64,000 bases of DNA, from the IMG/VR virus record IMGVR_UViG_2861773553_000003, positions 20,849 through 84,848 of that record. One strand, given 5' to 3'. The stretch is from a virus (taxonomy: Duplodnaviria > Caudoviricetes). This document shows positions 8,140 to 61,161 of this stretch, piece after piece (the first letter of the stretch is position 1; the number at the start of each line of letters is the position of its first letter). The notes under the pieces were generated by a model, which did no database searches, was not told the DNA's origin, and saw nothing but the letters and a program-made list of their open reading frames with translations. The position numbers were made by a program, and so were the translations under genes.

Positions 8140-8203
8140 TCGCCGTCCGCGACGCTCGTCGTGGCGCCCCGGCGCCGCACCCGCCCACCCCAGCGAGGCC
8201 ACG

Positions 8204-10769: not shown

Positions 10770-11170
10770 GCGGCGATCTCGTCCTGGACTCCACCGCCGT
10801 CCTGCAGCGCGCCGCCGATCATCTGGACCGGTACGGGATGGTCTACTTCCTGTACACCTCGCCCTTGGGGGCCACGCGATTGGCCGAGCAGAGCATGTGC
10901 CCGGTGGGGGCGATCCGGCACTCCAGCGGCCTGCACCCGGACCCCGACCACCCCGGGGCCGACGAGGATCCGCAGCGGCTGATCCTGGCCGAGACCGCCG
11001 TGCGCCGCCTGGCGGCGTGCGCACCGGTGCCCATGCGCCGCGACCCGGTCAAGGCCGTGCTGGCGTGGGTGGACCGTCGCCTGCCCAGCCGGGCGGAGGT
11101 CGTGTCCTACCTGCGGCAGGCCGCCGCCGACCCGTCTCCTCCCGGCCCCGTGCCGATCGTCCCGGTCTGA
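10766..11170 (+). CDS. DUF6197-like protein, copy 3
   Basis: VLQRAADHLDRYGM...CPVGAI...WVD...SRAEV. Confidence 0.65.
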   Translation: MSGDLVLDSTAVLQRAADHLDRYGMVYFLYTSPLGATRLAEQSMCPVGAIRHSSGLHPDPDHPGADEDPQRLILAETAVRRLAACAPVPMRRDPVKAVLAWVDRRLPSRAEVVSYLRQAAADPSPPGPVPIVPV

Positions 11171-14944: not shown

Positions 14945-15149
14945 CACGTCCCACGATCAGCTCCGCTGGCGCAAGAGCCGCTACAGCGGAGACGCATCCA
15001 ACTGCGTGGAACTGGCCCCGAGCACCGACGGTAGCGGCGCGGTGCACGTCCGGGACAGCAAGAATCCCACCGGGCCGGCCCTGCGCTTCGGCGCGGGCTC
15101 CTGGGCGTCGTTCGTCCGGAGCGTCAAGAACGGCGACTTCGACCGGTAA
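14934..15149 (+). CDS. DUF397 protein
   Basis: WRKSRYS...NCVELA...VRDSKNP...WASF. Confidence 0.93.
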   Translation: MDRSTSHDQLRWRKSRYSGDASNCVELAPSTDGSGAVHVRDSKNPTGPALRFGAGSWASFVRSVKNGDFDR

Positions 15150-15166
15150 CGACGGGTTCGCAAGGT

Positions 15167-15195
15167 TCAGGCCCCCCACGACGTGGGGGGCCTGA
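15167..15195. terminator. Stem-loop terminator
   Basis: TCAGGCCCCCCACG-A-CGTGGGGGGCCTGA after the DUF397 gene. Confidence 0.65.
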
Positions 15196-15372
15196 GGACC
15201 GTAGCTCTGTCAGGATATGCCCGGCGCTACTGTCGGGACGAGGGTTGACAGGCGCGGCAGGAGCGCCGCCGCAGCTCACCGCCCGAACGCCGACTCAACG
15301 ATGCATTACAACCTCGTCGCGATCAGTGAAATTTACAGGGCGTGCCCCTACCGGGCAGTCACAATCGCGTGC

Positions 15373-16212
15373 ATGGCGCGCATTTCCCCGCCCGAATTGG
15401 CCCGTGAACTCGGGGAACTCCTGCGCAGCCTGCGCCGGGCGCAGAATCTGACGATGACGCAGGTGGCGCATCGGACCGGTGTCAGCGCCGCCAAGCTCAG
15501 CCGCATCGAGACGGCCACGTTCCGGCCGCAGCGGGACGTCGTCGAGGCCGTCCTTGCGGTGTACGGCGCGGATGAGGAGACCCGCCGGCACTGCGTCGCC
15601 CTGACCGACGGAGCCCTGGCCGAGCCGTGGTGGGCGCCCTACAAGGCGGTGCTGCCGGGCCGGTTCGCGGCCCTGGAGACCGCCGCGGTGCGGATCTGCA
15701 CCTGGCAGCCGCTGCTGCTGCCGGGGCTGGTCCAGACCCCGGACTACACCCGGGCGGTCTTCGCCGCCGCCGGTTCCCCGCCCCAGGTGACCGAGCTGGC
15801 GGTGACCGCGCGGCAGATGCGTCAGCGCGTGCAGCTGAGCGGGCCGGACGCGCTGCGGCTGCGCATGGTGCTGTGGGAGCCGCTGCTGCGGCGCCGGATC
15901 CTGCCCTCGCCGCTGTGGGCCGCGCAGTTGTCCGCCCTGGCCGAGTGCGCGAGCCGGCCGAACCTCAGCGTGCGGGTACTGCCCGAGCGCCCGCATGGGC
16001 ATCCGGGCCTGGAGGGCGGCTTCTCGGTGCTGGAGCTGCCTCATGATCGGCGTGTCGTGCACACCGAGGGGGGTCCGGCCGAGTCGATCATCGATACGAT
16101 CCCCTCCGTTGCTGAGTTCGACCGGCGATACCGGTGGCTGGAAGCGCACGCGCTCCCTACGGGGGAGTCGGCGGTACTGATCGCCAAGATCGCGAGGGAG
16201 ATCAGGTGCTGA
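15373..16212 (+). CDS. Second XRE-HTH / DUF5753 regulator
   Basis: LGELLRSLRR...KLSRIET; LPGLVQTPDY; RQMRQ. Confidence 0.88.
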   Translation: MARISPPELARELGELLRSLRRAQNLTMTQVAHRTGVSAAKLSRIETATFRPQRDVVEAVLAVYGADEETRRHCVALTDGALAEPWWAPYKAVLPGRFAALETAAVRICTWQPLLLPGLVQTPDYTRAVFAAAGSPPQVTELAVTARQMRQRVQLSGPDALRLRMVLWEPLLRRRILPSPLWAAQLSALAECASRPNLSVRVLPERPHGHPGLEGGFSVLELPHDRRVVHTEGGPAESIIDTIPSVAEFDRRYRWLEAHALPTGESAVLIAKIAREIRC

Positions 16213-16391
16213 CACACGACTGGCTCACCGCCTCCGACGTCGGGACGGGCTGCCTGCAGGCCCGCCTCGACGAGCACGGGCGGGTGCTGGTGCGCAACAC
16301 CACAGGCGGCCCGTCCGTGGTGGCGACGGCGCCCGAGTGGCGGGTGTTCGTCCGCGAGGTCAAGACGGGGGCGTTCGACCTGCCGTCCTAA
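16206..16391 (+). CDS. Divergent DUF397 protein
   Basis: WLTAS...CLQAR...LVRNT...EWRVFVREVKTGAFD, following an XRE gene. Confidence 0.75.
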   Translation: MLTHDWLTASDVGTGCLQARLDEHGRVLVRNTTGGPSVVATAPEWRVFVREVKTGAFDLPS

Positions 16392-28565: not shown

Positions 28566-28670
28566 ATGCTGGCATGGCACATGCTGGCGGGCGGATCGGC
28601 CGCCAGCACGTGCCAGCACGCGCCAGCGCGACGCGTGCTGGCACGTGCCCGGCGTAGGCGTGCTGGCGCG
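28566..28670. repeat. Cluster of seven TGCTGGC / GCCAGC(A) motifs
   Basis: Forward at 28567, 28582, 28636, 28661; reverse at 28602, 28612, 28622 (10-bp period). Confidence 0.6.
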
Positions 28671-28837
28671 CGGGCCTGGGCGCTGTGCGCGCCGACACCG
28701 AACGGGGCGCGTCAGCGCCCCGTTCGGGGCGTTCGATCCACCCCACCCCCGCCGCGCCGATCACGGGGCGGCGATCAACTCGCGGTCGCTCGCCCGGTTG
28801 GGTTTCGGGGATCGGGCGGGGGCCGAAGGAGGGGCTC

Positions 28838-43258: not shown

Positions 43259-44550
43259 GCGCGCGGGCCCTGCGCCCGATCGTGCATTTGTCTCCCGCCC
43301 AGGAAAAATCCATCGCGCAAAGCACGGCGCGAATAAACCTGTGGACGGGAAGCATACGATCGGGGAAAACCATCGCCTCTTTGCTGCGGTGGCTCACCTA
43401 TGTGGTGTCCGCCCCGCGCGGTGGCCATCTCGTCATCGTCGGGAAAACCGCAGACACGATCAGCAGGAATGTTTTCGAGCCGCTGACGGACCCGTCGCTC
43501 ACCGGCCCCGTGGCGCGGCGGATCTTCCATACCCGGGGCGCGCCGACGGCCAATATCCTGGGCCGGAGAGTGGAGATCATCTCAGCGGCCGATGTGCGCG
43601 CCGAGTCGCGATTGCGCGGCCTGACCTGCGCAGGAGCCTACGTCGATGAGGTGACACTGCTACCGGAGTCGTTCTTTGAACAACTCCTGGCACGCATGTC
43701 CCTGCCCGGCGCGAAATTGTTTGGCACGACCAATCCGGACGCGCCTAATCATTGGCTGCACAAGAAATTCATCCGGCGAGCGTCCGAGCTGGACATGCGC
43801 CACTGGCATTTCACTCTGGATGACAACCCGGCGCTCGATCCCACGTATGTCGCGAATTTGAAGGCCGAATTCACCGGCCTGTGGTACAAGCGCTTCGTCT
43901 TGGGCCTGTGGGTAATGGCCGAAGGCGCGATCTATGACATGTGGGATCCGGATCGGCATGTGGTGACCGCATTACCGCCGATGGAACGGTGGCTGGCGGT
44001 CGGCGTGGACTACGGCACGACCAATCCCTTCAGCGCGATCTTGGTCGGGGTGTCGGTCCCCGACGAGGCCGGCCAGCGGCGGCTGTACCTGGCCAGCGAG
44101 TGGCGCTGGGACTCGCGCGAGAAGCGCCGCCAGCTCACCGACGCCGAGTACTCGGCCGCGCTCACCGACTGGCTCGACTCCGTCCCCGACGCCTACGGCG
44201 CGGGCACCCGCGGCGTGCGGCCCGAGTGGCTGATCGTCGATCCCAGCGCCGCGAGCTTCGTGGCTCAGCTGTTTCGGGACGGGTTCGCCCCCACCCTGGG
44301 CGCGAACCGGGTCAACGACGGCATCCGCACCGTCAGCAACCTGATCGCCGCCGACCACCTGCGGGTGCACGCCTCGTGCTCGGGGTTCCTGTCCGAGATC
44401 GGCAGCTACTGCTGGGACGAGGCCAAGGCCGACAAGGGCGAGGATCACCCCGTCAAGATCGACGACCACAGCCTGGACGCCGCCCGGTACGGCCTGCACA
44501 CCACGGCGGCGGCCTGGTCTCCGCTTCTGGTGCCCGTGCCGTGCGCCTGA
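43255..44550 (+). CDS. Terminase large subunit (PBSX-like)
   Basis: GSIRSGKT, AYVDE, TTNP, GVDYG, IVDPS, DHSLDAARY. Confidence 0.95.
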   Translation: MSARALRPIVHLSPAQEKSIAQSTARINLWTGSIRSGKTIASLLRWLTYVVSAPRGGHLVIVGKTADTISRNVFEPLTDPSLTGPVARRIFHTRGAPTANILGRRVEIISAADVRAESRLRGLTCAGAYVDEVTLLPESFFEQLLARMSLPGAKLFGTTNPDAPNHWLHKKFIRRASELDMRHWHFTLDDNPALDPTYVANLKAEFTGLWYKRFVLGLWVMAEGAIYDMWDPDRHVVTALPPMERWLAVGVDYGTTNPFSAILVGVSVPDEAGQRRLYLASEWRWDSREKRRQLTDAEYSAALTDWLDSVPDAYGAGTRGVRPEWLIVDPSAASFVAQLFRDGFAPTLGANRVNDGIRTVSNLIAADHLRVHASCSGFLSEIGSYCWDEAKADKGEDHPVKIDDHSLDAARYGLHTTAAAWSPLLVPVPCA

Positions 44551-45282: not shown

Positions 45283-46581
45283 GTGGCCATCTCGACCGCC
45301 CCCGGGCCCGCCCCGGTCAGCGCCCTGTTCGGGACCGCCACCACCGCGCCCATGACCTTCAGCGCGGGCACCACGTTGGTCGCGGTGGTGATCTCGGAAG
45401 GTTCATCCTCCGAGGTGGCCATGGCGTCCAGCCCCGCCCTGGACTGGATCTACCAGGTGGGGACCGGCCCGGCCGTGGCCCCGCGCGTGGAGATCCATGC
45501 GGCGCGGGTGACGGCGACCGCCAGCACGACCGTCTCGGTGACGGGCAGCGACCCGGTGATGATGAAGGTGTACGCCTTCCACGGCGTTGACGGCGATCTG
45601 GTCGGCGACGTCGCCTTCGCCAGTACCGCCGACCACACCCAGAGCACCTACAGCATCGGCCTGGCGGTGCCCACCGCCGGATCCTGGGTGGTGGGCGCCG
45701 CCCAGGAGTACAGCCTCAACGGCACCGTGTCCTCCGCCGACGCCACCGACCAGCTCATCCTGCCCGGAGAATTGCAGGGCCTGGCGCTGCGCAAGGGCGC
45801 GGCCACCACGGGCCCGAACCAGGTCGTCCCGGTCACGGTCACCAGCACCTCCATCTTCCCGAGGTGGGGACTGGCGCTGCTGGCGCTGCTGGCCGCCGAC
45901 GAGCTCACCCAGCCGCTGAGCCGCGCCGCGCACGGCGGCACCGCCTGGCCCCTCAGGCCGGCCCGGGTGCGTCTTCTGGGACGGGGGAGTGGGACCGGCC
46001 AGGCGCTGCCCCTGCGGGCGTCGCGTCCGGTGCGGCCCGCGGCCGCCACGCACACCGTGCGACCGCTCGGGGCCCGCAAGGAGCGGCCGCTGCAGGGGGC
46101 CTCGCACGGCGGTACGGCCCGCCCGGTGATGGCCGCGCACGCCGCGGCGGCCGGGACCGCGATCGAGACCGGCCAGGCCCGTCCGCTCGACAGCACCCCC
46201 GGGATCGGCCGGGCCGCCCAGCTGGGACAGGCCCGGATGCTGACACCCGCCAAGGCCTCGCCGTGCGGGCCGGCGTCGATGACCGGGCAGTGCGCCAAGG
46301 CCGTCGTCCTGCGCTCGGCCACGCTCACCCCGGCCACGCTCGACGTGGCGGCGGCTCCGCTGGGGCGCGGCAAGATCGCCCCGGTGGGGCGGGCCGGACA
46401 GGCCGGCGTGGCCCGCCTGGTCGGCACCGCGCCCTTCCAGATCGGCGCGCTGGCCCCGGCGGCCACCACGGGTACGGCGCTGCCGATCCGCCGGCGCGGC
46501 CGCGTCCTGGCCCCGCGCGGGCCGATCCGCGCCTGGGCGGCGGAGCCGCCCGCGTCCGCGTGGCGGGCCCGCCTCGGCTGA
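45283..46581 (+). CDS. Minor virion protein, paralog A
   Basis: Thr/Ser-rich beta domain followed by ARPL-type repeats. Confidence 0.65.
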   Translation: MAISTAPGPAPVSALFGTATTAPMTFSAGTTLVAVVISEGSSSEVAMASSPALDWIYQVGTGPAVAPRVEIHAARVTATASTTVSVTGSDPVMMKVYAFHGVDGDLVGDVAFASTADHTQSTYSIGLAVPTAGSWVVGAAQEYSLNGTVSSADATDQLILPGELQGLALRKGAATTGPNQVVPVTVTSTSIFPRWGLALLALLAADELTQPLSRAAHGGTAWPLRPARVRLLGRGSGTGQALPLRASRPVRPAAATHTVRPLGARKERPLQGASHGGTARPVMAAHAAAAGTAIETGQARPLDSTPGIGRAAQLGQARMLTPAKASPCGPASMTGQCAKAVVLRSATLTPATLDVAAAPLGRGKIAPVGRAGQAGVARLVGTAPFQIGALAPAATTGTALPIRRRGRVLAPRGPIRAWAAEPPASAWRARLG

Positions 46582-46596
46582 TCGTGAGGGGGCACG

Positions 46597-47928
46597 GTGC
46601 CGCTCAGCGCGCTGACCTCTCCGCCCCTGGTCTTCGTCGAGGGCGGGTCGCTGATCAGCACCGCCGCGTTCGCGGCTCCGGCCGGCTCGCTCCTGGTCGC
46701 CGTGCTGATGGCCGAGGAGGCCTCGGCCGCGCTGACGGTGTCCTCCAGCCCCGCGCTGACCTGGACCAGCCGGGCCAAGACCACCGCACCCCTGGGCCAG
46801 GTGCGCATCTACACCGCCGCCGTGCCCGCCGCCCAGGCCGCGCTGACCGTGAGCGGCCAGACCAACCAGGACGACCTGGGGCTCAAGGTGTTCGCCTTCG
46901 GGGGCGCCGACCTGGCCATCCCGGTCGGGCAGGTCTACCAGAGCGCCACCAACGACGGCTCCGGCAGCATCACGCCGACCCTGTACTCCTCCAGCGTGGC
47001 GGGGACCTGGACCGTGGGCGGCGCGACGGAGTTCTCCGCCAACGGCACCCTGACCTCGACCGACGTGGGCGAAGCGTTCAAGGTCTACCTGAACGTGGAC
47101 GGTATCGCGCTGCGCAAAGCGGCGCCCACCGCCACGGCCGGCACGCCCGTCACGCTGCACGCGTCCACGTCGGCCACCTCGGGGCGCAACTGGGCGATGG
47201 CCGCGATCGAGGTGCGGCCCGCGCCGGGATCGGCACCGGTTCTGACCCCGGCGGCCCAGCTCGCCATAGTCCGCCCGCTGCCCCGGAGCAAGGCCCGCCC
47301 GACGGCGGCGGGCGCCGAGGCCGCGTCCGTCCTCCCCCTGCGGGCCGCCACGTCTGCGCCGCTACTGGCCGCGCTCCAGACCACCCAGGCCCGGCCGTTG
47401 CCCGCCGGCAAGCGACGCCCGCTCGGCGGCGCCCACGCCGGCCAGGTCGCCTCTTCGCCCGGCGCGGCTCACGCCGTGGCGATCACGGGCCCCTCCACCG
47501 CCGAGGCGGCACTGCCGGTGTCGGGCCAGCGGCGGATCGGCGCGGTCGTCGAGGCCGGGGACTGCCGGCCGCTGCTGCCGTCCAAGAGCCGCCTCCTGGC
47601 GCCCGCCGCGCATCTGGCCGGCGCCGGCGCCGTACGCCGGGGCCGCGGCGGCGCGCTCGCGCCCGTCCCGGTCTCGTCGAGCGTGGTGCCCTTCGGCGCG
47701 CGCAAGGACCGCGCGCTGCCCCCGGCGGGGCACACGTCCACGGCGGCGATGATCCGTCCGCTGCCGCCGCAGTTCGTGCCGCTGCTCCCGGCCCTGACCG
47801 CCGGCCAGGCCCGCCCGCTGGGGCGGCCGAGCGCCCCGCTGGCGGCCCGGGGCCCCGTGCGCCTGTTCGGCCTGCGCGCCTCGGGCCGCGCCTGGCGTGC
47901 CTGGCGGGCGGGCCCGCCCGAGGACTGA
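46597..47928 (+). CDS. Minor virion protein, paralog B
   Basis: Shares LVAV...SSPALxW...KVxAFxG...GxWxVG...NGT...ALRK with paralog A. Confidence 0.65.
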   Translation: MPLSALTSPPLVFVEGGSLISTAAFAAPAGSLLVAVLMAEEASAALTVSSSPALTWTSRAKTTAPLGQVRIYTAAVPAAQAALTVSGQTNQDDLGLKVFAFGGADLAIPVGQVYQSATNDGSGSITPTLYSSSVAGTWTVGGATEFSANGTLTSTDVGEAFKVYLNVDGIALRKAAPTATAGTPVTLHASTSATSGRNWAMAAIEVRPAPGSAPVLTPAAQLAIVRPLPRSKARPTAAGAEAASVLPLRAATSAPLLAALQTTQARPLPAGKRRPLGGAHAGQVASSPGAAHAVAITGPSTAEAALPVSGQRRIGAVVEAGDCRPLLPSKSRLLAPAAHLAGAGAVRRGRGGALAPVPVSSSVVPFGARKDRALPPAGHTSTAAMIRPLPPQFVPLLPALTAGQARPLGRPSAPLAARGPVRLFGLRASGRAWRAWRAGPPED

Positions 47929-49790: not shown

Positions 49791-50867
49791 GCCGATCTGC
49801 TCGACCGGCTCTCGGCCGAGCAGCGGGAGGCCCTGACGCCGCAGGAGATCGAGGTCCTGCCGTGGATCTGGTCCTGGCGGCAGGGCGTGCTGCACGAGCA
49901 CGCCCTCGACCGCCGCCATGGCCGCGACACGCTGCCCGAGGAGCTGGAGATGGTGCGCCGTCGCGCCGAGCTCACCGCGCTGCCCGTGGAGCAGCGCCGC
50001 GCCGTCCTGCTCGCGCCCGGCGGCGCCCGGCGGCTCGCCGAGGCGGGCATGACGTGGGAGACCCTCGCCGGGTGGCTGCACGGGCCGATGGACGCGGCCG
50101 CGTGGGCGGCCATCATCCCTTCCATGGGCTACATGGCGCGGCTGCGGAACCTGCGCAACTTCGACGAGGCGGACGTGCCGGACGAGGTCATCGCCCCGGT
50201 GCTCGCGCAGCTGGCCGACCCCGAGCAGGTGCGCCGGTCCCGGCAGCTGCCGTTCCGCTTCTACAGCGCCTACAAGTCCGCGCCCAGCCTGCGCTGGGGA
50301 CACGCCCTGGAACAGGCGCTGGGGCACGCGGTGGGCAACATCCCCGCCCTCGGGGGCCGCACGCTCGTCCTGGTGGACACCTCGGCCTCCATGCAGGCGC
50401 CGCTGTCCGGCCGCTCATCGGTCTCCCGGGTGGAGGTGGGGGCGCTGTTCGGCGTCGCGTTTGCCGCACGCACACGCGCGTGCGACCTGGTGGGCTTCGC
50501 CAACGGCGTCTTCACGCACCACCTGCGGCCGGCCGCGTCGGTACTGAAGCAGACGCAGGCGTTCACCGAGCGAATCGGCGAAGTCGGGCACGGCACCGAC
50601 ATCCCCGGCGCGGTGCGCGCCGCCTACGCCGGGCACGAGCGCGTGGTCATCGTCTCGGACATGCAGACGATCGGCTCACCGGGCCGGGGCGTGTCGGACC
50701 TGGTGCCCGCGCACGTGCCGATCTACGGGTTCAACCTGGCCGGATACGCCGCCGGGGCGATGCCGACGGGGTCGGCCAACCGGCACGAGTTCGGCGGTCT
50801 GTCCGACGCGACCTGGCAGATGATGGCGCTCCTGGAGTCGGGGCGCAACGCCGACTGGCCGTTCTGA
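49791..50867 (+). pseudogene. Ro60/TROVE-vWA protein, 5'-truncated
   Basis: AGMTWE, IPSMGYMARLRNLRNF, SRQLPFRF, LVDTSASM (MIDAS), GTD, VSDMQ; N-terminal part absent. Confidence 0.88.
50465..50484. promoter_or_regulatory. Dispersed palindrome inside the TROVE gene
   Basis: Exact CGCACGC-acacgc-GCGTGCG. Confidence 0.7.
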
Positions 50868-50875
50868 TCACAGCC

Positions 50876-50908
50876 GCCGCCGGGCCTCCGCTGCGGGGGC
50901 CCGGCGGC
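50876..50908. terminator. Stem-loop between convergent genes
   Basis: GCCGCCGGGCCTCCGC-T-GCGGGGGCCCGGCGGC. Confidence 0.6.
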
Positions 50909-50928
50909 GCGGTCAGATCGAGAGCGGG

Positions 50929-51048
50929 TCAGATCGATGAGTTGAAAGTGATCCCCGACTCGGGGGCGTCCCCGAGGGCGACCTGGCCGATCACCTCGTC
51001 CAGAGGCGTCTCCGTCACATCGGCCACGATCGTCGTCACGTCGTCCAT
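50929..51048 (-). CDS. FxSxx-COOH RiPP precursor-like peptide (39 aa)
   Basis: MDDVTTIVADVTETPLDEVIGQVALGDAPESGITFNSSI*; acidic leader, C-terminal FNSSI, GGGGTGAG upstream. Confidence 0.7.
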   Translation of the reverse strand: MDDVTTIVADVTETPLDEVIGQVALGDAPESGITFNSSI

Positions 51049-51126
51049 CCGCTCACCCCAGCACCACCGGCCCCGCGCGGTCAAGACGACCCGCGGGGTT
51101 TCGCATGCGCCGAAGGGGGGCGGCGT

Positions 51127-53949
51127 GTGCTTGTCCGGCTGGCCGTCTACGCCCCCAACGGCGCCCGTCAGGGGGTGCTGGCGCACCCGCTGACGCTGGA
51201 GGCGGCCCACCCCCTGGGCGATGTGCCGTCCTTGCGCATCTCCTACTCCGCGCACGGACCCGGCGCCGAGCTGCTGGACGAGCCGTGTGAGATCGCGCTG
51301 GAGTACTCCGCCGACGGCGGGGTGAGCTGGGCCGAGCCGTACGACGGCCGCTTCGTGCGGATCCGCCGCCGCGCCGATGCCGCTGACCGCAGCGGGGCCC
51401 GCGCCGCCGAGCTGCCCGGCTACGCCTGGATGCTCCGCAAGGTCATCCTTTATCCCGGCAGCGCGCCGCTGGTCAGCGGCAAACGAGCGTTCCTCTCGGC
51501 CACCCCGGGCGCGATCATGGCGACCGTCCTGGCCGAAGGGCAGTTCCGGGGCGCCCTGCCCGGCTTGGCCTACGACTTCACCCCGGCCCACGACTCGGCC
51601 GGGGCCGCCTGGCCGCAGATCCTGACCATCTACTACCAACCCGGGATCGACGCCCTCACCGCGCTGATCAACATGTCCGAGCAGGGGCTGATCGACTGGC
51701 GCATGTCCGGCCGGACCTTGCAGCTGTACGCGGCCGACACCACGCTCGGCCGCGACCTGGCCGCCGGGGACGGCCCGGTGGACCTGCGGCTGGGCCGCGA
51801 CGTGCTCGCCGCCCCTGATGAGGCCACCCTCGAAGACGCCGCCAGCGCGGTGCTCGTGCTCGGCGAGGGCGCGTTCGTCCACCAGCAGACCAGCCCCACG
51901 CCGGGGCCGTGGGGCCGCTGGGAACAGTACGTGGCCGCGGGCGGGGTCTCCGACGTCGGCACCGCGACGCTGCTGGCCACCTCGGCGCTGACCCGCGCCG
52001 ACGGTGAGCGCGTCCAGCGCACCCGGCAGATCACCACGCGCACGGCGCGATGGCTGCCCTACCGCGACTACCGCCCCGGCGACTACGTGCTCGCCCCCGG
52101 CGAAGCCGGCCACGCCACGCCGCTGCGGATCCGCCAGATCACCCTGTGGCGCGACGCCGCCGGGGTCGTGGGCGGGGCGCTGACCCTCAACGACCGCTTC
52201 CTGGAGCACCAGATCCGGCTGGCCCGCCGTACGGCGGGCATCGTGGGCGGTTCCACGATCGACGGCGGCACCGGGGCGCGGCCGGCCCCCGAGGCGCCCG
52301 AGCCGCGCACGCCCGCCGCCCCCACCGGGCTGACCGTGGGCGCGGTGGCCTACATCGACGCCGGAGGCTTCCCGGCCGGGCAGATCACCGCGAGCTGGTC
52401 GCCCGTCACCGCCGACGCCGGCGGGGTCGCGCTGACCGTGGGCGGCTACGAGCTGTGGTGGGCGCTCAACGCCACCGGTGCCCCGTGGACGCTGCTGACC
52501 TCCACCACCGCCCCCGACACCACGGCGACGTACTCGCCGCTGACCGTGGGAGAGTCCTACCAGTTCAAGGTCCGCGCGATCAATCTCGGCAAGGCCGGGG
52601 GCTTCTCCCCGCCACAGGCCGTGACGATCCCCGACGACACCACGCCGCCACCCGTCCCGTCCGCGCCGGTGCTGTCCACCCGGCTCGGCGTCATCCACGT
52701 CGAGTGGGACGGCCTGGGCGCGGGAGCCGTACCGATGCCGGCCGACCTGCACCGGGTGCGGGTGTGGATGCAGGACCCGCTCGCGCCGGGCTACGCCGAG
52801 GTCGGGTCCCTGACGTCGGCCGGGTCCATCGTGGTGCCCGACCAGCCGTACGGCGCGAGCCGCCAGTTCCGCCTGACCGCCATCGACCGCAGCAACAACG
52901 AGTCCGCGGCCTCGGCCACCGCGACGATCGCCACCCAGGCCGTGGTCAACACCGATGTGATCGGCGAGGTGCTGGACGCGGCCAAGCTGATCGACGGCAC
53001 CCTGGTGGCCAGCGACAAGGTCGTCGCGGCCTCGATCACCGGTGGGCTGATCCAGTCCCTGGCGATCAACACCGGGCACCTGGCCGCGAACGCGGTGACC
53101 GCCGCCAAGATCGCCGCCGGGCAGATCCAGACCAGCCACCTGCAGGCCAACGCCGTCACCGCCGACAAGCTCCAGGCGGTGCTCACCCTGTCCACCCGGA
53201 TCGTCGCCGGGAACCCGACCGGCGCCCGAGTCGAGCTGAGCACCACCGGCCTGGAGGCCTACAACGCCTCCAGCGTCCAGACCCTGTCCATCTCCGCGAC
53301 CACCGGCGCGGTGTCGATCATCGGGCAGTTGTCGTCCGGCACCACCGGCACCCGCGTCGTCATCAACCCCGCGGGCGCGGCCACCCCCGAGATCCGCTTC
53401 TACCCCTCGGCCGGGACCAACTTCAGCCGTATCTACTCCGACGCCAGCCTGTTCGCCGGCGAGGCCACGCTGATCCAGCGCTCGGGCACCAACGCGGGTT
53501 CCACGGCCGAGACGCTGGTGCAGCACGCGGCCGGCTCCTGGGACGTGTGGGTCCGGCACCCGGGGACGCTGGCGTTCAACGGCGGCCGTCTCAGCGCCGA
53601 GCAATCCCAGGCGATGATCGGCTACCAGACCGCCTCGCTCGTCCAGCGCCTGACGTTCCTGCCGAGCAGTACGCGGCACTCGGGCACCTGGTCCACCGCC
53701 GGCTCCGACGCCGGGCTGCTGATGTACTCGATGCCGTTCAACGGCGGCATCGGTTGGACGCTGTCCTGGCACGCGACCATGGCCTCGGTGCCGCTGGTCG
53801 TCTGGACCGCCGACACCCTGGCCTCCCCGCCGTCCCACATCACGGTCGGCACCTGCGTCACCAACCGCTCCACGACCGGCGTGCTGCTGCTGACCACCTC
53901 GACCGTGGCCATCTCGATCCAGGCGATGGCCTGGGCCTGGCGCATGTGA
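51127..53949 (+). CDS. Tail protein 1 (tail-tip domain, FN3-like domains, AVTAAKI repeats)
   Basis: PAAPTGL...ASWSPV...YQFKVRAIN; 10-aa repeats; late-region position. Confidence 0.85.
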   Translation: MLVRLAVYAPNGARQGVLAHPLTLEAAHPLGDVPSLRISYSAHGPGAELLDEPCEIALEYSADGGVSWAEPYDGRFVRIRRRADAADRSGARAAELPGYAWMLRKVILYPGSAPLVSGKRAFLSATPGAIMATVLAEGQFRGALPGLAYDFTPAHDSAGAAWPQILTIYYQPGIDALTALINMSEQGLIDWRMSGRTLQLYAADTTLGRDLAAGDGPVDLRLGRDVLAAPDEATLEDAASAVLVLGEGAFVHQQTSPTPGPWGRWEQYVAAGGVSDVGTATLLATSALTRADGERVQRTRQITTRTARWLPYRDYRPGDYVLAPGEAGHATPLRIRQITLWRDAAGVVGGALTLNDRFLEHQIRLARRTAGIVGGSTIDGGTGARPAPEAPEPRTPAAPTGLTVGAVAYIDAGGFPAGQITASWSPVTADAGGVALTVGGYELWWALNATGAPWTLLTSTTAPDTTATYSPLTVGESYQFKVRAINLGKAGGFSPPQAVTIPDDTTPPPVPSAPVLSTRLGVIHVEWDGLGAGAVPMPADLHRVRVWMQDPLAPGYAEVGSLTSAGSIVVPDQPYGASRQFRLTAIDRSNNESAASATATIATQAVVNTDVIGEVLDAAKLIDGTLVASDKVVAASITGGLIQSLAINTGHLAANAVTAAKIAAGQIQTSHLQANAVTADKLQAVLTLSTRIVAGNPTGARVELSTTGLEAYNASSVQTLSISATTGAVSIIGQLSSGTTGTRVVINPAGAATPEIRFYPSAGTNFSRIYSDASLFAGEATLIQRSGTNAGSTAETLVQHAAGSWDVWVRHPGTLAFNGGRLSAEQSQAMIGYQTASLVQRLTFLPSSTRHSGTWSTAGSDAGLLMYSMPFNGGIGWTLSWHATMASVPLVVWTADTLASPPSHITVGTCVTNRSTTGVLLLTTSTVAISIQAMAWAWRM

Positions 53950-53967
53950 GCGCCAGGCCGCACCACT

Positions 53968-54792
53968 ATGCTCGGGACGGTGCGGATCGGCGTGGTCTAC
54001 GACGGCGGCTGGTGGGCCCACGTGTCCGATTACTACGCCCACGTGCACCCGGCGCGGGGGCGCATCTCCTTCCAGGGCTTGCACGACCTGCTCCGCTGGC
54101 ATCTCGGGCACCGGGACGCTGAGGTGGAGGCGCACTACGTCCGCGCCCGCTCGGCTCCCTCCCGCGCCTTCGACGCGATCCTGGACACCGCGGGCGTACG
54201 CCGTCATGACGCGGACTGGGCGGGCGGTCAGGAGAAGGGCGCCGACGTCCTGCTCGCCCTGGTCGCCTACGAGCACGCACTGCGACGGCGGTGGGACGTG
54301 GCGGTCCTGCTGACCGGCGACGCCGACTTCCTGCCCCTGGTCGGGCGGCTGCGGCGCGCGCGGGTCCGCGTGGTCGTGCCCAGCCTCGATGTCGATGCCG
54401 GCGCGATACGGCTGCACACCGCCAGCGCGCTGCGCGAGGCCGCCTCCGACGCGCCTGACCTTGAGGATCTACTCGCCGCCGGCACGGCGGGGCGGCACGG
54501 CGGCCTTCCCCCGTTCGTCCGCCGGGAGGCCGGGGCCACGCCGCCCGCGTCCGGCGATCGTCGTACCGGCCAGATCACCCGCTGGCAGGCTGGGGACACG
54601 GCCGGCTTTCTCACCGAGGAGAAGACGGGCCAGTCGTGGTTCGTCTCCCGTGACGACCTGCCCGCCGACAAGCCCGCCCTGCCGGTGGGCACCCGGGTCA
54701 GCTTCACCGGGCGCCCTCACCCGGCGCCGGGCAAGCGCTACCCGCAGGCCCGCTCAGTCACCCCGATCGAGCGAGGCGGCACAGGAGCGTAG
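53968..54792 (+). CDS. NYN (LabA/DUF88) domain protein with C-terminal cold-shock/OB domain
   Basis: VYDG, EKGADVLLAL, LLTGDADFLPL; GQITRW...GFL...SWFV. Confidence 0.85.
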   Translation: MLGTVRIGVVYDGGWWAHVSDYYAHVHPARGRISFQGLHDLLRWHLGHRDAEVEAHYVRARSAPSRAFDAILDTAGVRRHDADWAGGQEKGADVLLALVAYEHALRRRWDVAVLLTGDADFLPLVGRLRRARVRVVVPSLDVDAGAIRLHTASALREAASDAPDLEDLLAAGTAGRHGGLPPFVRREAGATPPASGDRRTGQITRWQAGDTAGFLTEEKTGQSWFVSRDDLPADKPALPVGTRVSFTGRPHPAPGKRYPQARSVTPIERGGTGA

Positions 54793-56002: not shown

Positions 56003-56169
56003 GCGACGACCTGAGCGTGTCGCTAGAGGCGATCATCGCCGAGCTGCGCCGCCGCCACGCGGCCGCGATGGAGGCCCTGGTGTACGAGGTCGCGGTGCTG
56101 GGGGCTGCGGTGGCGCAGCTGCAGGCCGAGCTCGCCGAGGCCCGCCGGGACGGCGGCGATGCCTCCTGA
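55999..56169 (+). CDS. Small coiled-coil protein
   Basis: GGAGG RBS; overlaps both neighbours. Confidence 0.6.
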   Translation: MSDDLSVSLEAIIAELRRRHAAAMEALVYEVAVLGAAVAQLQAELAEARRDGGDAS

Positions 56170-59100
56170 GCTGATCCGCGCCGGCTCGGCTCCGCCGTTC
56201 GGCATGCGGCTCGTCGCGTACGCCCCCAACGGCGCCCGTCAGGGGGTGCTGGCGCACCCCACCAAGATCGAGGCGGCCTTCCCGCTCAACGACGTCTCCA
56301 GCCTGTCCTTCAGCTACCCAGCGCACGCCCCCGGCGCGGAGGTGCTGGCCGCGCCGTGCGAGGTGGGCCTGGAGTACGCCGTGGCCGGCGGCGCCTGGAT
56401 CGAGCCGCCCGGCGGCCGGTTCCTGCTGATCCGACGCCAGGCCGACCATGCCGACCCGGCGGGGGAGCAGCGCTACAGCTGCCCCGGCTATGCCTGGATG
56501 CTGCGCAAGAACGTCCTGTACGGCGGGCCGTCGCTGGTCGAGGGGAAGCGGGCGTTCTCCGCCGTGCCGGCCGGCGCGATCGTGCGGACGATCACGACCG
56601 AGGGGCAGTCGCGCGGCGCACTGCCCGGGCTGAGCACCGACTTCACCGCCTCGGCCGACTCGGCCGGGCAGCCGTGGGGGCAGCTGCTGACGCTGGCCGT
56701 CGAGCCGGGCACGCCGCTGCTCACCCTGCTGCTCAACCTGAGCGAGCAGGGGCTGATCGACTGGCGCATGTCCGGCCGGATTCTGCAGGCCTACAAGCCG
56801 GACACGGTCATGGCGGCCGACAAGGCCAGCGGGGCGGCCGTGGTGGATCTGCGGCTGGGCCGGGACATCACCGAGGCCCCCGTCGAGAGCACCCTGGAAG
56901 ACCTGGCCAGTGCCGTCCTGGTGACCGGAGAGGCCGGGCTGCGCCTGGAGGTCACCAACCCCGCCGCGGCGACCCCCTGGGGACGGTGGGAGACCGCCCA
57001 GTCGCAGGGCGGGGTGTCCGACACCGGAACCGCGAGGCTGCTGGGGCAGACCGCGCTGGGCCGGGTGGCGGCCGCGCGCACCCAGCTGACCCGGGCGCTG
57101 ACGCCGTACGGCGCGCGCTGGCTCCCGCTCGCCGACTACGCCCCGGGGGACTTCGTCCTCGCCCCCGGCCCGGACGCCAGCCTGCAGCGGGTGCGGGTGC
57201 GGCAGATCACCGTCTCGGCCGACGAGGACGGCGTCATCGGCGGCAACGCGCTGCTCGGCGACCGCTTCCTGGAGCGGGACATCAAGCTCGCCCGGCAGGC
57301 CCAGCGCATCATCGCCGGCGGCACCGGTACCGGCGGGTCCGGCGGGCAGCCCGCGCCCGAGGGGCCCGCCCGGGTTCCGGCCGCCCCGGCCGGGCTGGTC
57401 ATCGACCCGCAGGCGTACCTGGACGAGCACGGCTACGCGCGCGGGCAGATCACCGCCACCTGGTCGGCGGTCACCGCCGACGTCACCGGCACGGCGCTCG
57501 ACATCGACGGGTATGAGCTGTGGTCGCGGATCAACGTAGCCGGTCAGGTGTGGCTGCGGATCGCCGCGATCGACGGCGGCGACACCACGGCGACCTACTC
57601 GCCGCTGGTGGTGGGGGAGACCTACGCGTTCAAGGTCCGCGCGACCAGCCGGGGCACGCCGGGCCAGTTCAGCGCCCAGGTCGTGACGGTGATCCCGGAC
57701 GATGCCACGCCGCCGCCGGTCCCGAGCACCCCGCAGCTGTCCACCCGGCTCGGCGTCATCCACGTGGCCTGGGACGGGCTGGCCGCCGGGGGCACGCCGA
57801 TGCCGGCCGACTTCGAGCGACTCCTGGTCCAGATGCAGGACCCGCTGGCGCCCGGCTGGGCGCAGGTGGGCGACCTGCAGACCAAGGGCTCGCTCGTGAT
57901 CCCCGGGCAGCCGTACCACGCGCCGCGCGAGATCCGCTTCGTGGCGGTGGACCGTTCGGGCAACGCCTCGGCGCCCTCGGCCGCCGCGACCGTCTCGACG
58001 CAGCCGCTGGTCAACGCCGACATCATCGGGCAGATCATCGCCGGGGCGAACATCGCCCCCGAGTCGATCACCGGCGGCCACATCCTGGCCGGCGCGGTCG
58101 GCGGGGCGCATCTGGCTCCCGCCTCGATCACCGGAAACAAGATCGTCGCGGGGACCATCACCGGAGGGCTGATCGCGGCGCTGGCGATCGCCGCCGACAA
58201 GATCGCCGCGAACGCCATCACGGCCGACAAGATCGACGTCGGCGCGGTGCGGGCCAGTCACATCCAAAGCGACGCGGTCACCGCCGACAAGATCGCCGCG
58301 AACGCGATCACCACCGGCAAGATCGCGGCAGATGCGGTCACCGCCGCCAAGATCGCGGCGGGAACGATCACGGCCAGCCATGTCGGCGCCGACCAGATCA
58401 CGGCCACTCACCTGGCCGCTAACGCCGTTCAGGCCGCCAGTATCACAGCCGGCGCGGTGACCGCCGCCAAGATCGCCGCCGGAGCGGTGAACGCGGACAA
58501 GCTCGCCGCCACCATCACCTTGTCGAGCCGGATCGTGGCCGGGTCCCCCTCCGGGGCGCGGGTGGAGTTGTCCGACTCCGGACTGGAGGCGGTCAACAGC
58601 TCCGGGCAGAACACCGTCACCATCACCACCGGCGGACAGGTGGACATCGTCGGCCGGATCACCTCCTCCACCTCCACCTCCGGCAAACGCCTGGTCGTCA
58701 ACCCCCTCATCGGGGCCGATCCCGAGATCCGGATGTATGAGACGGCCTCCAGCTACCACTACTGGACCAGCTACGTCACCGGAGCCGGCATGCAGTTCGG
58801 TTCGACCACGATCTCCTCCCGCAAGGCCGTGCTCGACATGTCGGCCGGCGGCTTCGCCATGTACAGCGCCCTCAACGACCAGGTCAACGGCGGCAACATC
58901 TCGGGCACCTCCTCCTCGGCGCGGCTGGACTCCACCGGCGGGGCCACCGTGGAGACCAGCGGGGCCTGGTTGCGGCTCCGCGGTCGTTTCCAGGTCTCCG
59001 ACGCCAACACCGCGGTGGTGGGCTTCGCCTTGTCGCTGGGCGCGGGGATCGGCTGGAGCATCACCTTCGGCGTCAATCTGGCGGGCACCCCGGCGGTGCA

Positions 59101-59233
59101 GTTCACCGCCGACACCAGCACCGACATCTTCGGCAGCTTCACCCGCAACCGGACCAACACCGGGGTCGAGGTCCGCATCGCCTCCAACGTCAATGCCGCC
59201 ATCTTCGCCAACATCTGGGCCTACCGCGTGTGA
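56159..59233 (+). CDS. Tail protein 2 (paralog of tail protein 1)
   Basis: Collinear with the 51127 gene, with a longer AITADKI repeat tract and a divergent C-terminus. Confidence 0.85.
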   Translation: MPPELIRAGSAPPFGMRLVAYAPNGARQGVLAHPTKIEAAFPLNDVSSLSFSYPAHAPGAEVLAAPCEVGLEYAVAGGAWIEPPGGRFLLIRRQADHADPAGEQRYSCPGYAWMLRKNVLYGGPSLVEGKRAFSAVPAGAIVRTITTEGQSRGALPGLSTDFTASADSAGQPWGQLLTLAVEPGTPLLTLLLNLSEQGLIDWRMSGRILQAYKPDTVMAADKASGAAVVDLRLGRDITEAPVESTLEDLASAVLVTGEAGLRLEVTNPAAATPWGRWETAQSQGGVSDTGTARLLGQTALGRVAAARTQLTRALTPYGARWLPLADYAPGDFVLAPGPDASLQRVRVRQITVSADEDGVIGGNALLGDRFLERDIKLARQAQRIIAGGTGTGGSGGQPAPEGPARVPAAPAGLVIDPQAYLDEHGYARGQITATWSAVTADVTGTALDIDGYELWSRINVAGQVWLRIAAIDGGDTTATYSPLVVGETYAFKVRATSRGTPGQFSAQVVTVIPDDATPPPVPSTPQLSTRLGVIHVAWDGLAAGGTPMPADFERLLVQMQDPLAPGWAQVGDLQTKGSLVIPGQPYHAPREIRFVAVDRSGNASAPSAAATVSTQPLVNADIIGQIIAGANIAPESITGGHILAGAVGGAHLAPASITGNKIVAGTITGGLIAALAIAADKIAANAITADKIDVGAVRASHIQSDAVTADKIAANAITTGKIAADAVTAAKIAAGTITASHVGADQITATHLAANAVQAASITAGAVTAAKIAAGAVNADKLAATITLSSRIVAGSPSGARVELSDSGLEAVNSSGQNTVTITTGGQVDIVGRITSSTSTSGKRLVVNPLIGADPEIRMYETASSYHYWTSYVTGAGMQFGSTTISSRKAVLDMSAGGFAMYSALNDQVNGGNISGTSSSARLDSTGGATVETSGAWLRLRGRFQVSDANTAVVGFALSLGAGIGWSITFGVNLAGTPAVQFTADTSTDIFGSFTRNRTNTGVEVRIASNVNAAIFANIWAYRV

Positions 59234-59268: not shown

Positions 59269-59871
59269 GTGGCCGTCCACTGGAACATCGTGAGCGTGAC
59301 CGCACGCACGGACGCGGCCGAGCAGCCGTGGTGGGAGGTCGTCTGTGAGGTGCCGCCCGAGATCATGGCGGGGGGACTGCTGCCCTGCCTGTTCCCCGCG
59401 ATCGCGATCGAAGGATACGCCGGCCAGCTTGGGCTGACCGATGTCTCGGTGCTCGTGGACGTGCTGGTCCACATGCCGATGCTGCGCGTGCACCAGGCGG
59501 CCGGTGAGCTCCCGCTGGTGTTCCCGACCCGGGTCAGCGAAGAGGCGGCGCGCGAGGCGCTGCTCGGCCTGGTGGCTCAGGTGAAGTCGCTGCACGACGG
59601 CGGCGTCGTGCAGCATGCTTCGGCGCTGCGCGACCCGGACGCGCCGAGCGATCTTCTGGCCCCGATCCGCCAGACCGTCCTGGTCCTGGACCACGTCGCC
59701 GATCGGCAGTTCCTCTCCGACCTGGAACGGCTGGAACACGGTGTCGTCCAAGAGCGCATCAGCTACGTCAACGGCGTCACGCCCGACTCCTACGGCGCCG
59801 CGCTGCGAGCGCTCCACGGCACCGCGCCGCTGGCCGCACCGGGGTCAGGACGAGCACGGGCGCAGCCGTGA
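59269..59871 (+). CDS. Tail-associated protein, paralog B
   Basis: GGAGG RBS; motifs shared with the 55490 gene, including L.PIR. Confidence 0.7.
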   Translation: MAVHWNIVSVTARTDAAEQPWWEVVCEVPPEIMAGGLLPCLFPAIAIEGYAGQLGLTDVSVLVDVLVHMPMLRVHQAAGELPLVFPTRVSEEAAREALLGLVAQVKSLHDGGVVQHASALRDPDAPSDLLAPIRQTVLVLDHVADRQFLSDLERLEHGVVQERISYVNGVTPDSYGAALRALHGTAPLAAPGSGRARAQP

Positions 59872-60242
59872 CCGGCCCGGAGCTGCTGCAGCTGTTCGCG
59901 GCCGCCGCCACGGTGGCCGGCGGCCTGGCCCTGCTGGTGCTGCTCGGCCGGATGGTGGTGTGGGCGTGGCGCTTCCTGCGCCGGGTCGGCCACTTCCTCG
60001 ACGACTGGCAGGGCGAGCAGCCCAGGCCGGGGGTGCCGGCCCGGCCGGGCATCCCCGAGCGGCTCGCGTCGGTGGAGGCGCGGATGGCGGGGGTGGAGGC
60101 GCGGATGGCCGCGCTGGAGGTCGAGCTCAGCCATGACGGCGGCGCCACGCTGCGGGACGCGGTGGGCCGAGTGGAGGACGGCGTGGCGCGGGTGGAGGAC
60201 GGGCTGCGCGCGCACATCGACCAGCACCGGGAGGAGCCGTGA
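59868..60242 (+). CDS. Lysis-cassette membrane protein
   Basis: N-terminal TM, FLDDW.GE..RPGVP.RPG, coiled coil. Confidence 0.75.
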   Translation: MTGPELLQLFAAAATVAGGLALLVLLGRMVVWAWRFLRRVGHFLDDWQGEQPRPGVPARPGIPERLASVEARMAGVEARMAALEVELSHDGGATLRDAVGRVEDGVARVEDGLRAHIDQHREEP

Positions 60243-60346
60243 GCGGCGAGCACGACCCACGCGCCCGGGCGGCGGTGTGGTGGCTGCTGGGGCTGTGGGT
60301 GCTGGTGGAGCTGGCAATGATCGGCTGGGCCGTGTGGCGGTCCTGA
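60239..60346 (+). CDS. 35-aa single-TM peptide
   Basis: GGAGGAG RBS, GTGA overlap; AVWWLLGLWVLVELAMIGWAVW. Confidence 0.55.
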   Translation: MSGEHDPRARAAVWWLLGLWVLVELAMIGWAVWRS

Positions 60347-60360
60347 CGCTGGGGGGACGC

Positions 60361-61161
60361 ATGGTCAAGATCGTCACGCGGGAACAGTGGCAGGCGGCGC
60401 GGCCCGCGCGCACTCCCACGCGCATCACCCGCACCAAAGGGGTCAAGATCCACTACACCGGGTCCTACGTCAACCCCAAGATCGTCACCGATCACGGGAT
60501 CTGCCTGAAGCTCACCCGCGACATCCAGCGCATGCACATGGCGGGCGGGCGCGGAGAGAAGTACATCGACATCGGCTACAACCTGCTGGCCTGCCCCCAC
60601 CGCTATGTGATCATGGGGCGGGGGCTCGGGGTGATCCCGGCCGCCAACGGCGCCGGGCTCAACGACGACCACTACGCCATCTGCGCGCTGGTCGGCTCCT
60701 CCGGCGCGGTCGCCCCCTCCGACGAGCTGCTGCACGCCCTGTGCGACGGGATCGAGCTGCTGCGAACCAAGGCCGGAGCCGGCCGCGAGGTCAAGGGTCA
60801 CCGCGACGGGTACGCCACCAGCTGCCCCGGCGGCCCCCTGTACGCCTGGGTCCGGCGGGGCGCGCCGCGGCCGGGCGCGCCGGCCGGCAAGACGCCCAAG
60901 CCGGTGCCCATGCCCGACGGGGTGCCGTCCTTCGTGCGCACGCTGCGGCTGGTCCGGCCGTACCTGCGCGGGCCGGACGTGCGGATGTGGCAGGAGCGGC
61001 TGGTCCGGCGCGGCTGGCGCCTGGACGTCGACGGCGTCTATGGCCCCCAGTCCGCCGGGGTGTGCGAGGCGTTCCAGTCCGCCGTGGGGCTGCTGGCCAC
61101 CGGCGAGGTGGACGAGCTCACCTGGCGGACCACGTGGACGTGGCGGCCGCCCCAACGCTGA
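60361..61161 (+). CDS. Endolysin: Amidase_2 domain plus peptidoglycan-binding domain
   Basis: IHYT, DIGYN, GHRD...TSCPG; GPDVRMWQ...VDGVYGP...FQ. Confidence 0.92.
   Translation: MVKIVTREQWQAARPARTPTRITRTKGVKIHYTGSYVNPKIVTDHGICLKLTRDIQRMHMAGGRGEKYIDIGYNLLACPHRYVIMGRGLGVIPAANGAGLNDDHYAICALVGSSGAVAPSDELLHALCDGIELLRTKAGAGREVKGHRDGYATSCPGGPLYAWVRRGAPRPGAPAGKTPKPVPMPDGVPSFVRTLRLVRPYLRGPDVRMWQERLVRRGWRLDVDGVYGPQSAGVCEAFQSAVGLLATGEVDELTWRTTWTWRPPQR

Follow-up and report, generated by a model that had tools for sequence, protein, structure and literature searches.

Introduction

Peptides that end in F-x-S-x-x-COOH, the FxsA precursors described by model TIGR04268, are substrates of FxsB (TIGR04269), and FxsB-type enzymes reportedly form three-residue cyclophanes, a result credited to Nguyen et al. 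in Nat. Chem. 2020. The Fxs system is common and its chemistry has been studied; the link of its peptide to a TIR protein and a ParA/TPR NTPase is still unexplained. In a 2026 preprint, FxsC and FxsT are classed as a predicted TIR-ParA 'apoptosis' (cell-suicide) system coupled to the FxsAB peptide, and the peptide itself is proposed as an antiviral molecule or alarm signal (10.64898/2026.10.19.760177). PMC12912966 describes related triceptide enzymes. Here we examine a gene for a 39-residue peptide of the FxsA kind in a 64,000-nucleotide stretch of DNA (the window) from IMG/VR record IMGVR_UViG_2861773553_000003, assigned to Caudoviricetes. The window is the right-hand 64 kb of contig C20 (84,848 bp) of an actinomycete genome of 9 Mb. 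An earlier reading of its sequence, the original prediction, had pointed to the peptide as an orphan FxSxx-COOH precursor-like product inside a phage virion region.

Pairwise and profile matches show the open reading frame (ORF) to be a genuine member of a short FxsA subtype, the predicted precursor for an FxsB radical SAM cyclophane maturase. The gene stands alone, in the manner of a phage moron, in a phage-derived element, with a Ro60-like gene on one side and a tail gene on the other, and the host has the maturase together with FxsC and FxsT. The reading that we favour on these comparisons, with modest confidence, is that the peptide is a phage-carried copy of FxsA that would be matured in trans by the host FxsB. 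The pattern suggests that phages carry the FxsA peptide to tap or silence the Fxs system of the host. In the literature searched on Fxs genes and on phage-encoded precursors of RiPPs (peptides made on the ribosome and modified after translation), no description of a phage-borne FxsA was found. The kind of peptide is already known; its short subtype is unannotated, and phage-borne orphan copies that tend to resemble the host's FxsA did not turn up in that literature.

Results

A short FxsA precursor on the minus strand

Read from ATG to TGA on the minus strand (50929-51048), the gene encodes MDDVTTIVADVTETPLDEVIGQVALGDAPESGITFNSSI, 39 residues with a leader bearing D10-x4-P15-L16 and a core F35-N36-S37-S38-I39-COOH. 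The original prediction had described a 39-aa antisense ORF hidden at the end of a spurious 1162-aa ORF and ending in FNSSI, and the description is accurate throughout. The peptide ORF forms the 3' end of a mechanical 1162-aa minus-strand ORF (50929-54417), which is spurious because it runs antisense to the real plus-strand gene at 51127-53949. FNSSI directly abuts the TGA, giving the C-terminal F-x-S-x-x by which FxSxx-COOH precursors are recognized. No in-frame ATG, GTG or TTG occurs within 10 codons upstream of the ATG, and an SD-like (Shine-Dalgarno-like) GGGGTGA at about 51053-51059 stands 4 nt ahead of it. G or C ends 35 of the 39 codons, and the position-specific GC model returns a coding score of 10.2, where the gene-call threshold is 8. 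The gene takes up the greater part of a 259-bp gap that separates the stop of the plus-strand gene at 49887-50867 from the start of the one at 51127-53949.

Comparison with authentic FxsA sequences used the ORFs directly upstream of FxsB in 43 loci of related genomes. Two types were seen, a long one of about 55-60 aa, with the consensus ...DLRxVPL...RxLP...VPVAAFNSSI (alignment A1), and a short one of 33-41 aa. Residues D17, P22 and L23 are invariant or nearly so across 30 long FxsA, and the short type aligns alike. The window peptide keeps M1, the leader Asp, the Pro-Leu pair five residues on and the terminal F-x-S-x-I, all with the same spacing, and its core, FNSSI-COOH, is identical to that of the host FxsA encoded on contig C34. 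The two peptides are equal in length and identical at 20 of 42 aligned positions (E 2e-8). A profile built from nine FxsB-adjacent short FxsA, with the window peptide excluded, was run against the 125,141 six-frame ORF tails of the genome. Its scores were 64 bits for the C34 FxsA, a training member, and 27.2 bits (E 1.7e-5) for the window peptide, after which came noise, led by a match of 12.2 bits (E 0.81). A second profile, which pooled 44 FxsB-adjacent FxsA of all types, ranked the window peptide second (20.2 bits, E 0.0049). The earlier label of a precursor-like peptide is thus borne out by both the pairwise and the profile match.

The gene might be thought a chance ORF, that is, an antisense frame in GC-rich intergenic DNA whose FNSSI ending is a coincidence. 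In this GC-rich DNA 77 ORFs of at least 30 aa lie within 10 kb, the exact peptide sequence was not found in a collection of 15 billion proteins, and scans of Pfam and PHROGs gave no match. The ESM Atlas holds the peptide sequence letter for letter; its best scores are at most 0.84 and serve as leads only. The curated model TIGR04268 (cut-off 28 bits), proposed earlier as a check on membership, also has no match to the window peptide at E<=10, and the peptide is absent among its 34 genome matches (150 of 688 candidates scored). The same model is equally blank for the 39-aa FxsA directly upstream of FxsB on C34 and gives 22.2 bits, below cut-off, to the FxsA-like ORF of a second host cluster on contig C2. 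A missing HMM match is formally an outcome that the original prediction had listed as refuting, but because the genuine C34 FxsA fails too, the silence of TIGR04268 is uninformative for the window peptide. Set against chance are the standing of the window peptide as the sole non-training match among all of the ORF tails, its full-length alignment to the family, M1 through C-terminus, in which the D-x4-PL spacing is preserved, and a search of the 9-Mb genome, in all six frames, with the peptide itself. Above noise, that search returned only the query and one other match, which coincides exactly with the C34 ORF upstream of FxsB. A chance origin is close to refuted, and we consider it highly improbable.

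The short FxsA subtype lies outside the coverage of TIGR04268. Among 1.84 billion representative proteins, a profile search turned up 20 more short FxsA-like peptides, the subtype is present in several genera, and the public entries looked up are unnamed or carry the label 'hypothetical protein'. An annotation gap is thereby exposed, in which the short subtype is missed by the curated model and passes as hypothetical.

Fxs clusters of the host genome

Among the 89 ORFs called in the window, none belongs to a radical SAM, TIR or TPR family, in agreement with the original prediction that the window holds no Fxs partner gene. In genome-wide searches FxsB rises above its cut-off twice, on C34 (569 bits) and on C2 (452 bits); FxsC occurs only on C34, and FxsT occurs on C34, C2 and C60. 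The same searches find no match to FxsB, FxsC or FxsT on the window's own contig of about 85 kb. A cognate fxsB cluster elsewhere in the element, which the original prediction had named as the finding that would make the peptide ordinary cargo, is therefore not there. The peptide is thus not encoded beside FxsB with FxsC and FxsT, as FxsA ordinarily is.

The cluster on C34 is complete and canonical, reading in order FxsA, FxsBH, an AAC(3)-like acetyltransferase, FxsC and FxsT. FxsBH (726 aa) is a radical SAM/SPASM protein with an inactivated hydroxylase extension. FxsC joins a TIR-like N-terminal domain to the FxsC C-terminal domain, and FxsT (1303 aa) joins a KGGVGR-type ParA-like ATPase to TPRs, the TPR module covering 830 positions. 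Upstream in the cluster are a membrane HExxH protease and a ThiF-like protein. A partial cluster on C2 comprises an FxsA-like ORF of 83 aa, FxsT, an HExxH beta-hydroxylase and an FxsB of 434 aa. The host thus holds two Fxs clusters, as the mimic or decoy and trans-maturation explanations offered earlier require. Across the family, FxsB is present in 209 of 401 genomes.

A third FxsT-like frame, with an in-frame TAG, was observed at G000:C60:311861-313891; its two parts score 203 and 185 bits, which sum to more than the cut-off. It may be a broken FxsT paralogue, and it lies away from any FxsB.

Orphan FxsA genes in related genomes

The short-type profile, applied to the 401 family genomes, gave 13 matches, nine of them rows of the profile itself. 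Eleven of the 13 lie within 3 kb of FxsB; the exceptions are the window peptide and a 46-aa ORF on G135:C1, METTLETGVPDLRDTPLGELTGVEAILARVLGEDRRVEVAAFNSSV, for which the nearest FxsB on the contig is 2.5 Mb away. The G135 orphan has an HTH_17 gene on one side and a serine recombinase on the other; also close by are WhiB, a PG_binding_1 lysin and an SPP1_Dit-like tail gene. From 121 genomes the long-type profile returned 36 matches, 32 near FxsB. Of the other four, G034:C74 and G009:C22 are clean orphans, for which neither FxsB nor FxsC nor FxsT lies within 7-8 kb, one, on a 9-kb contig, is accompanied only by a weak FxsT-like match, and one, on G007:C50, is described below. The G034 orphan is some 340 bp downstream of DNA that matches Streptomyces-phage holin or hypothetical genes, and the G009 orphan is about 1.2 kb from DNA that matches Streptomyces-phage endolysin genes. 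The G135, G034 and G009 hosts each carry FxsB elsewhere in the genome.

Taking both profiles together, 43 of 49 FxsA matches are near FxsB, and four are clean orphans, all beside phage genes. This distribution bears on the possibility that the window peptide is an ordinary spare precursor, an extra FxsA riding on a prophage and matured by FxsB to the same RiPP with no part in conflict. The host carries FxsB, the core and leader motifs of the peptide are intact, and several substrates per FxsB do occur, as in G077:C21, where two tandem precursors share one Fxs cluster. Neutral scattering, however, would not lead one to expect 43 of 49 FxsA near FxsB and four of four clean orphans by phage genes, nor viral contigs with FxsA-like ORFs and no maturase in the DNA available. 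We regard a conflict-neutral spare precursor as unlikely.

A second, non-phage way to an 'orphan' FxsA is shown by G007:C50 (L281, G007:C50:110882-127040, at about 7300-8160), a decayed Fxs cluster in which an FxsA ORF is immediately followed by a fragment of FxsB (33 aa) and the final 240 or so residues of FxsT.

FxsA-like ORFs in viral contigs

IMG/VR was scanned four times with degenerate DNA patterns that encode (A)FNSSI* or AFNSAI*, which yielded at least 173 ORF tails. Among the matches listed, to which the counts of this section refer, six score 24-47 bits with the 44-peptide profile (L238, L259, L257, L125, L254, L246), three reach 17-18 bits (L192, L121 and the partial L239), and the others score 13 or less. 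By tblastn, none of the nine loci has FxsB, FxsC or FxsT in its available DNA. PHROG-annotated phage neighbours accompany six of the nine (L125, L121, L246, L239, L259, L257): terminase and portal at L259, DNA polymerase and endolysin at L257, an endolysin immediately upstream of the FxsA-like ORF at L121, a terminase 3 kb off at L239, and RNase H with tRNA-His guanylyltransferase at L125. RecT is the neighbour at L192. At L246:1040-3543 an operon runs from a full-length TROVE/Ro60-like gene (556 aa) through a small ORF and RNase H to a 46-aa FxsA-like ORF.

RNA-repair-type genes accompany some phage FxsA copies (L246, L125). A general linkage of TROVE with FxsA was considered and rejected: TROVE stands near FxsA in the window and at one of the nine viral loci, and an FxSxx ORF occurs at none of 15 loci of TROVE homologues.

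Resemblance to the FxsA of the host

Each of the four genome-borne orphans was aligned to 46 FxsB-adjacent FxsA, and the FxsA of its own host was ranked. The host FxsA comes first of 46 for the window peptide (score 76, next 59) and first for the G009 orphan (129, next 90). For the G034 orphan it comes third, both higher peptides being from the host's genus. Three of the four orphans are thus closest to an FxsA of their own host or its genus. Host matching of this kind shows relatedness to the host system; host kinship or capture out of the host's lineage can each produce it, and it is not by itself co-adaptation. The recurrence of orphan copies in prophages and viral contigs, taken with this resemblance, supports a real link between phage and host.

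The phage element around the gene

Features of the window, and the host FxsA, are collected in Table 1. The original prediction had spoken of a phage virion region, and the portal, tail, holin, endolysin and terminase neighbours uphold that part; the element itself, however, looks damaged. Farther left in the window are an exonuclease, a Gp3-like/RecT-like protein, RuvC, a DNA methylase and ParB.

Table 1. Positions of the peptide gene, its neighbours in the window and the host FxsA.
Feature	Position	Strand	Basis or content
Terminase large subunit gene	43381..44550	+	phrog_2, 3.8e-39
Portal protein gene remnant	48611..~49780	+	phrog_533, 2.7e-73, profile positions 14-370 of 495
TROVE/vWA (Ro60-like) gene, 5'-truncated, convergent with peptide gene	49887..50867	+	phrog_850
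GC-rich hairpin, stem ~13 bp, flanked by the stops of the peptide gene and the convergent 49887-50867 (+) gene	~50870..50913	both	
Orphan short-type FxsA (FxSxx-COOH) precursor gene, 39 aa	50929..51048	-	sequence, pairwise and profile matches
Stop codon of peptide gene	50929-50931	-	TGA
Spacer, 78 bp, peptide start to start of divergent 940-aa gene	51049..51126	-	
Tail protein gene, 940 aa, GC3 0.94, divergent from peptide gene	51127..53949	+	phrog_31834, 3.3e-41
NYN-domain (RNase-like) gene between tail paralogues	53968..54792	+	PF01936, 1.3e-12
Tail protein gene, 1024 aa, paralogue of 940-aa protein	56159..59233	+	PHROG, blastn
Right end of phage-like region: holin-like gene, short ORF, endolysin	59868..61161	+	
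Holin-like gene	59868-60242	+	
Endolysin gene with PG_binding_1	60334-61161	+	
Host FxsA, 39 aa, directly upstream of FxsB on C34	L009:2616-2735; locus G000:C34:155000-174999 (L020)		MNDYTLPTVVVDNDNVPLSDLAGQIDSPETSAISFNSSI

The hairpin said to bound the gene is indeed present. Its folding energy is -38.4 kcal/mol on the minus strand (z -2.9, 2 of 200 shuffles as stable) and -45.2 kcal/mol on the plus strand (z -4.3, 0 of 200), and it is likely a bidirectional terminator without a U-tract, common to the peptide gene and its convergent neighbour. A consensus terminator scan returned 0 sites, missing this hairpin because it has no T run. A second stem-loop, at about 51071-51098 in the spacer, folds at -46.8 kcal/mol and is weak (z -1.9).

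Homologues of the 940-aa tail protein, 49-58% identical, occur in four viral contigs, where they come after tape-measure-like and Dit-like genes. At the equivalent place an FxSxx ORF is found in none of 21 related viral loci (six with the tail gene, 15 with the TROVE gene), which marks the peptide as accessory cargo here. When 16 kb of the window was compared with phages by megablast, nothing matched. In a plot of GC3 (G+C content at third codon positions) by frame, the portal gene passes to the TROVE gene by a +1 shift at about 49780, with neither stop nor start between. Homology of the TROVE ORF begins at residue 195 of the 556-aa viral homologue and extends some 20 codons upstream of the first possible start. 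This truncation and fusion looks like a deletion, an assembly error being the alternative. With portal and TROVE both cut short and out of frame where they meet, the prophage is probably defective.

The condition of the element raises the prospect of a decaying relic, an FxsA left over in a degenerating prophage and neither expressed nor selected. The portal/TROVE fusion fits such decay, as do the lack of recognizable capsid, tape-measure protein (TMP) and Dit genes, a consensus scan that finds 0 sigma-70-like promoter sites for the peptide gene, and the fact that 39 codons are few enough to remain open by chance. The G007:C50 locus demonstrates that an Fxs cluster can decay and leave FxsA beside FxsB and FxsT fragments. 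At the window locus, by contrast, neither the ORF families nor blastn reveal FxsB or FxsT fragments flanking the peptide gene, and the invariant positions, start codon, SD-like site, third-position G or C at 35 of 39 codons and terminator-like hairpin are all kept. Equivalent intact orphans recur in other prophages and in viral contigs. A relic is, in our estimate, quite improbable, somewhat more so than a spare precursor.

Several further features of the window were observed. The N-terminal DNA of the two tail paralogues (51127-53949 and 56159-59233) is 76% identical over 156 bp, and the tandem tail pair recurs in the four related viral contigs without an intervening NYN gene. In the interval between terminase and portal (45283-47928), two adjacent ORFs (432 and 443 aa) have GC3 of 0.95-0.96 and an unusually high second-position value (GC2 0.65), and neither has a match in Pfam, NCBIfam or PHROG. 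ARAGORN calls a tRNA-Val (GAC) at 28656-28753, whose 98 nt far exceed the usual length for tRNA-Val; an intron-bearing tRNA, the remnant of an attachment site and a false call are candidate explanations. Left of the phage-like genes (9835-11170 and 14051-16391) are three tandem DUF6197 genes and two tandem pairs of HTH_31/DUF5753 with DUF397, which we take to be the WhiJ/BldB-like pairing typical of actinomycetes.

Discussion

Maturation of the window peptide in trans is likely because the leader D-x4-P-L and the core FNSSI-COOH are kept and the host FxsA is its best match of 46. Under the reading we favour, a phage-carried FxsA copy, the peptide would be translated and cross-linked in trans by host FxsB on Phe35-Asn36-Ser37, and the result would be a phage-supplied copy of the host FxsA product. 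Its likely target is the FxsC/FxsT module, in line with the cell-suicide role that the 2026 preprint independently predicts for that module. Contact between the peptide and the TPRs of FxsT is plausible, speculatively, from the strictly C-terminal motif and the large TPR array. In a counter-defence role, a steady supply of matured peptide would hold FxsT/FxsC off, and the phage copy would avert triggering once host expression collapses.

Of the effects such a copy might have, we tentatively prefer, by analogy, that the peptide mimics host FxsA and quiets the TIR-ParA suicide module in the manner of an antitoxin mimic. That it boosts the Fxs output of the lysogen against other phages, as superinfection exclusion, comes next and seems to us unlikely. 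A dead-end decoy, one of the roles raised by the original prediction, is less likely than a functional mimic because the FNSSI core and the D-x4-PL leader are intact. A broader proposal would be that actinomycete phages commonly carry host-matched, maturase-less FxsA genes, and that the FxsB-made cyclophane is a ligand of the FxsT TPRs that keeps the FxsC TIR NADase off; we offer it as a doubtful generalization.

A number of results weigh against a functional phage-carried copy. Within the family evidence, besides the silence of TIGR04268, identity to the C34 FxsA is only 48%, a match by type and not a close one. No homologue of the window peptide at E<=0.1 is found in the 401 family genomes, and no protein of 22-70 aa in a set of 5.8 billion clusters shares three 5-residue words with it (the query being the peptide plus one more window codon). 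The G135 orphan places the FxsA of its own host only 15th of 46. In blastn, the peptide gene with its flanks has no DNA similarity to the C34 locus; recent capture from that locus was accordingly rejected, and any capture must therefore be old.

The viral evidence has its own weaknesses. Pre-selecting viral tails for FNSSI or FNSAI adds some 10-13 bits, so that E-values are optimistic, and L238 and L254, with transposase or FtsK contexts, are less clearly viral, as IMG/VR contigs may include host DNA. The original prediction had looked to actinophages for orphan homologues. These turned up in prophage regions and viral contigs, but tblastn with the window peptide and two viral FxsA-like peptides found no match in 50,697 cultured phage records. 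As to the element, besides its probable defect and the empty promoter scan, no TMP or Dit homologue is on the window contig, and an intact 39-codon ORF can persist by chance in such decay. The direction of the peptide's effect on FxsC/FxsT is purely inferred.

Should phages carry FxsA in this way, the recurring orphans amount to a natural experiment on which Fxs component matters to phages. The antitoxin-mimic role, if true, would reveal the purpose of the long-unexplained Fxs peptide.

Comparison with known systems

The nearest described relatives of the window peptide are the FxsA precursors themselves, which it resembles in its FNSSI end, the D-x4-P-L of its leader, its small size and its high-GC actinomycete host. 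It differs from canonical FxsA in being of the short subtype and in its setting, among phage genes on another contig and away from FxsB, FxsC and FxsT. In that setting it is like phage morons, or lysogenic-conversion genes, which are likewise small and accessory, lie in opposite orientation between conserved phage genes, have a hairpin of their own and are absent from the same site in related phages. The other orphans share this likeness, being by a lysis cassette or recombinase at a prophage end. Unlike a moron, the peptide gene has no promoter in the scan, and its cargo is a host-RiPP precursor whose enzyme the phage lacks, not a self-sufficient protein.

Arbitrium, the AimP/AimR pair, is a case of peptide-TPR signalling in phages. 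It too has a short phage-encoded peptide, and FxsT is a possible TPR receptor. Here, however, the host encodes the TPR protein, as a fusion with a ParA-like NTPase, the peptide depends on a radical SAM cross-link, and the phage carries no secretion signal or processing protease.

Phages are known to mimic components of host immunity, as with the pseudo-ToxI antitoxin RNA of phage PhiTE and with T4 Dmd. The likeness is that the phage copy is a small, probably labile component of a suicide system, resembles the host version and leaves the effector with the host. The window peptide differs in that it would first need enzymatic maturation by the host, and in that inhibition is here only inferred.

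Prochlorosins are scattered precursors that serve one maturase, and they are like the window peptide in lying away from the maturase, elsewhere in the genome, with the leader motif kept. FxsA orphans differ from them in being rare (four clean cases in 49) and in that all four are phage-associated.

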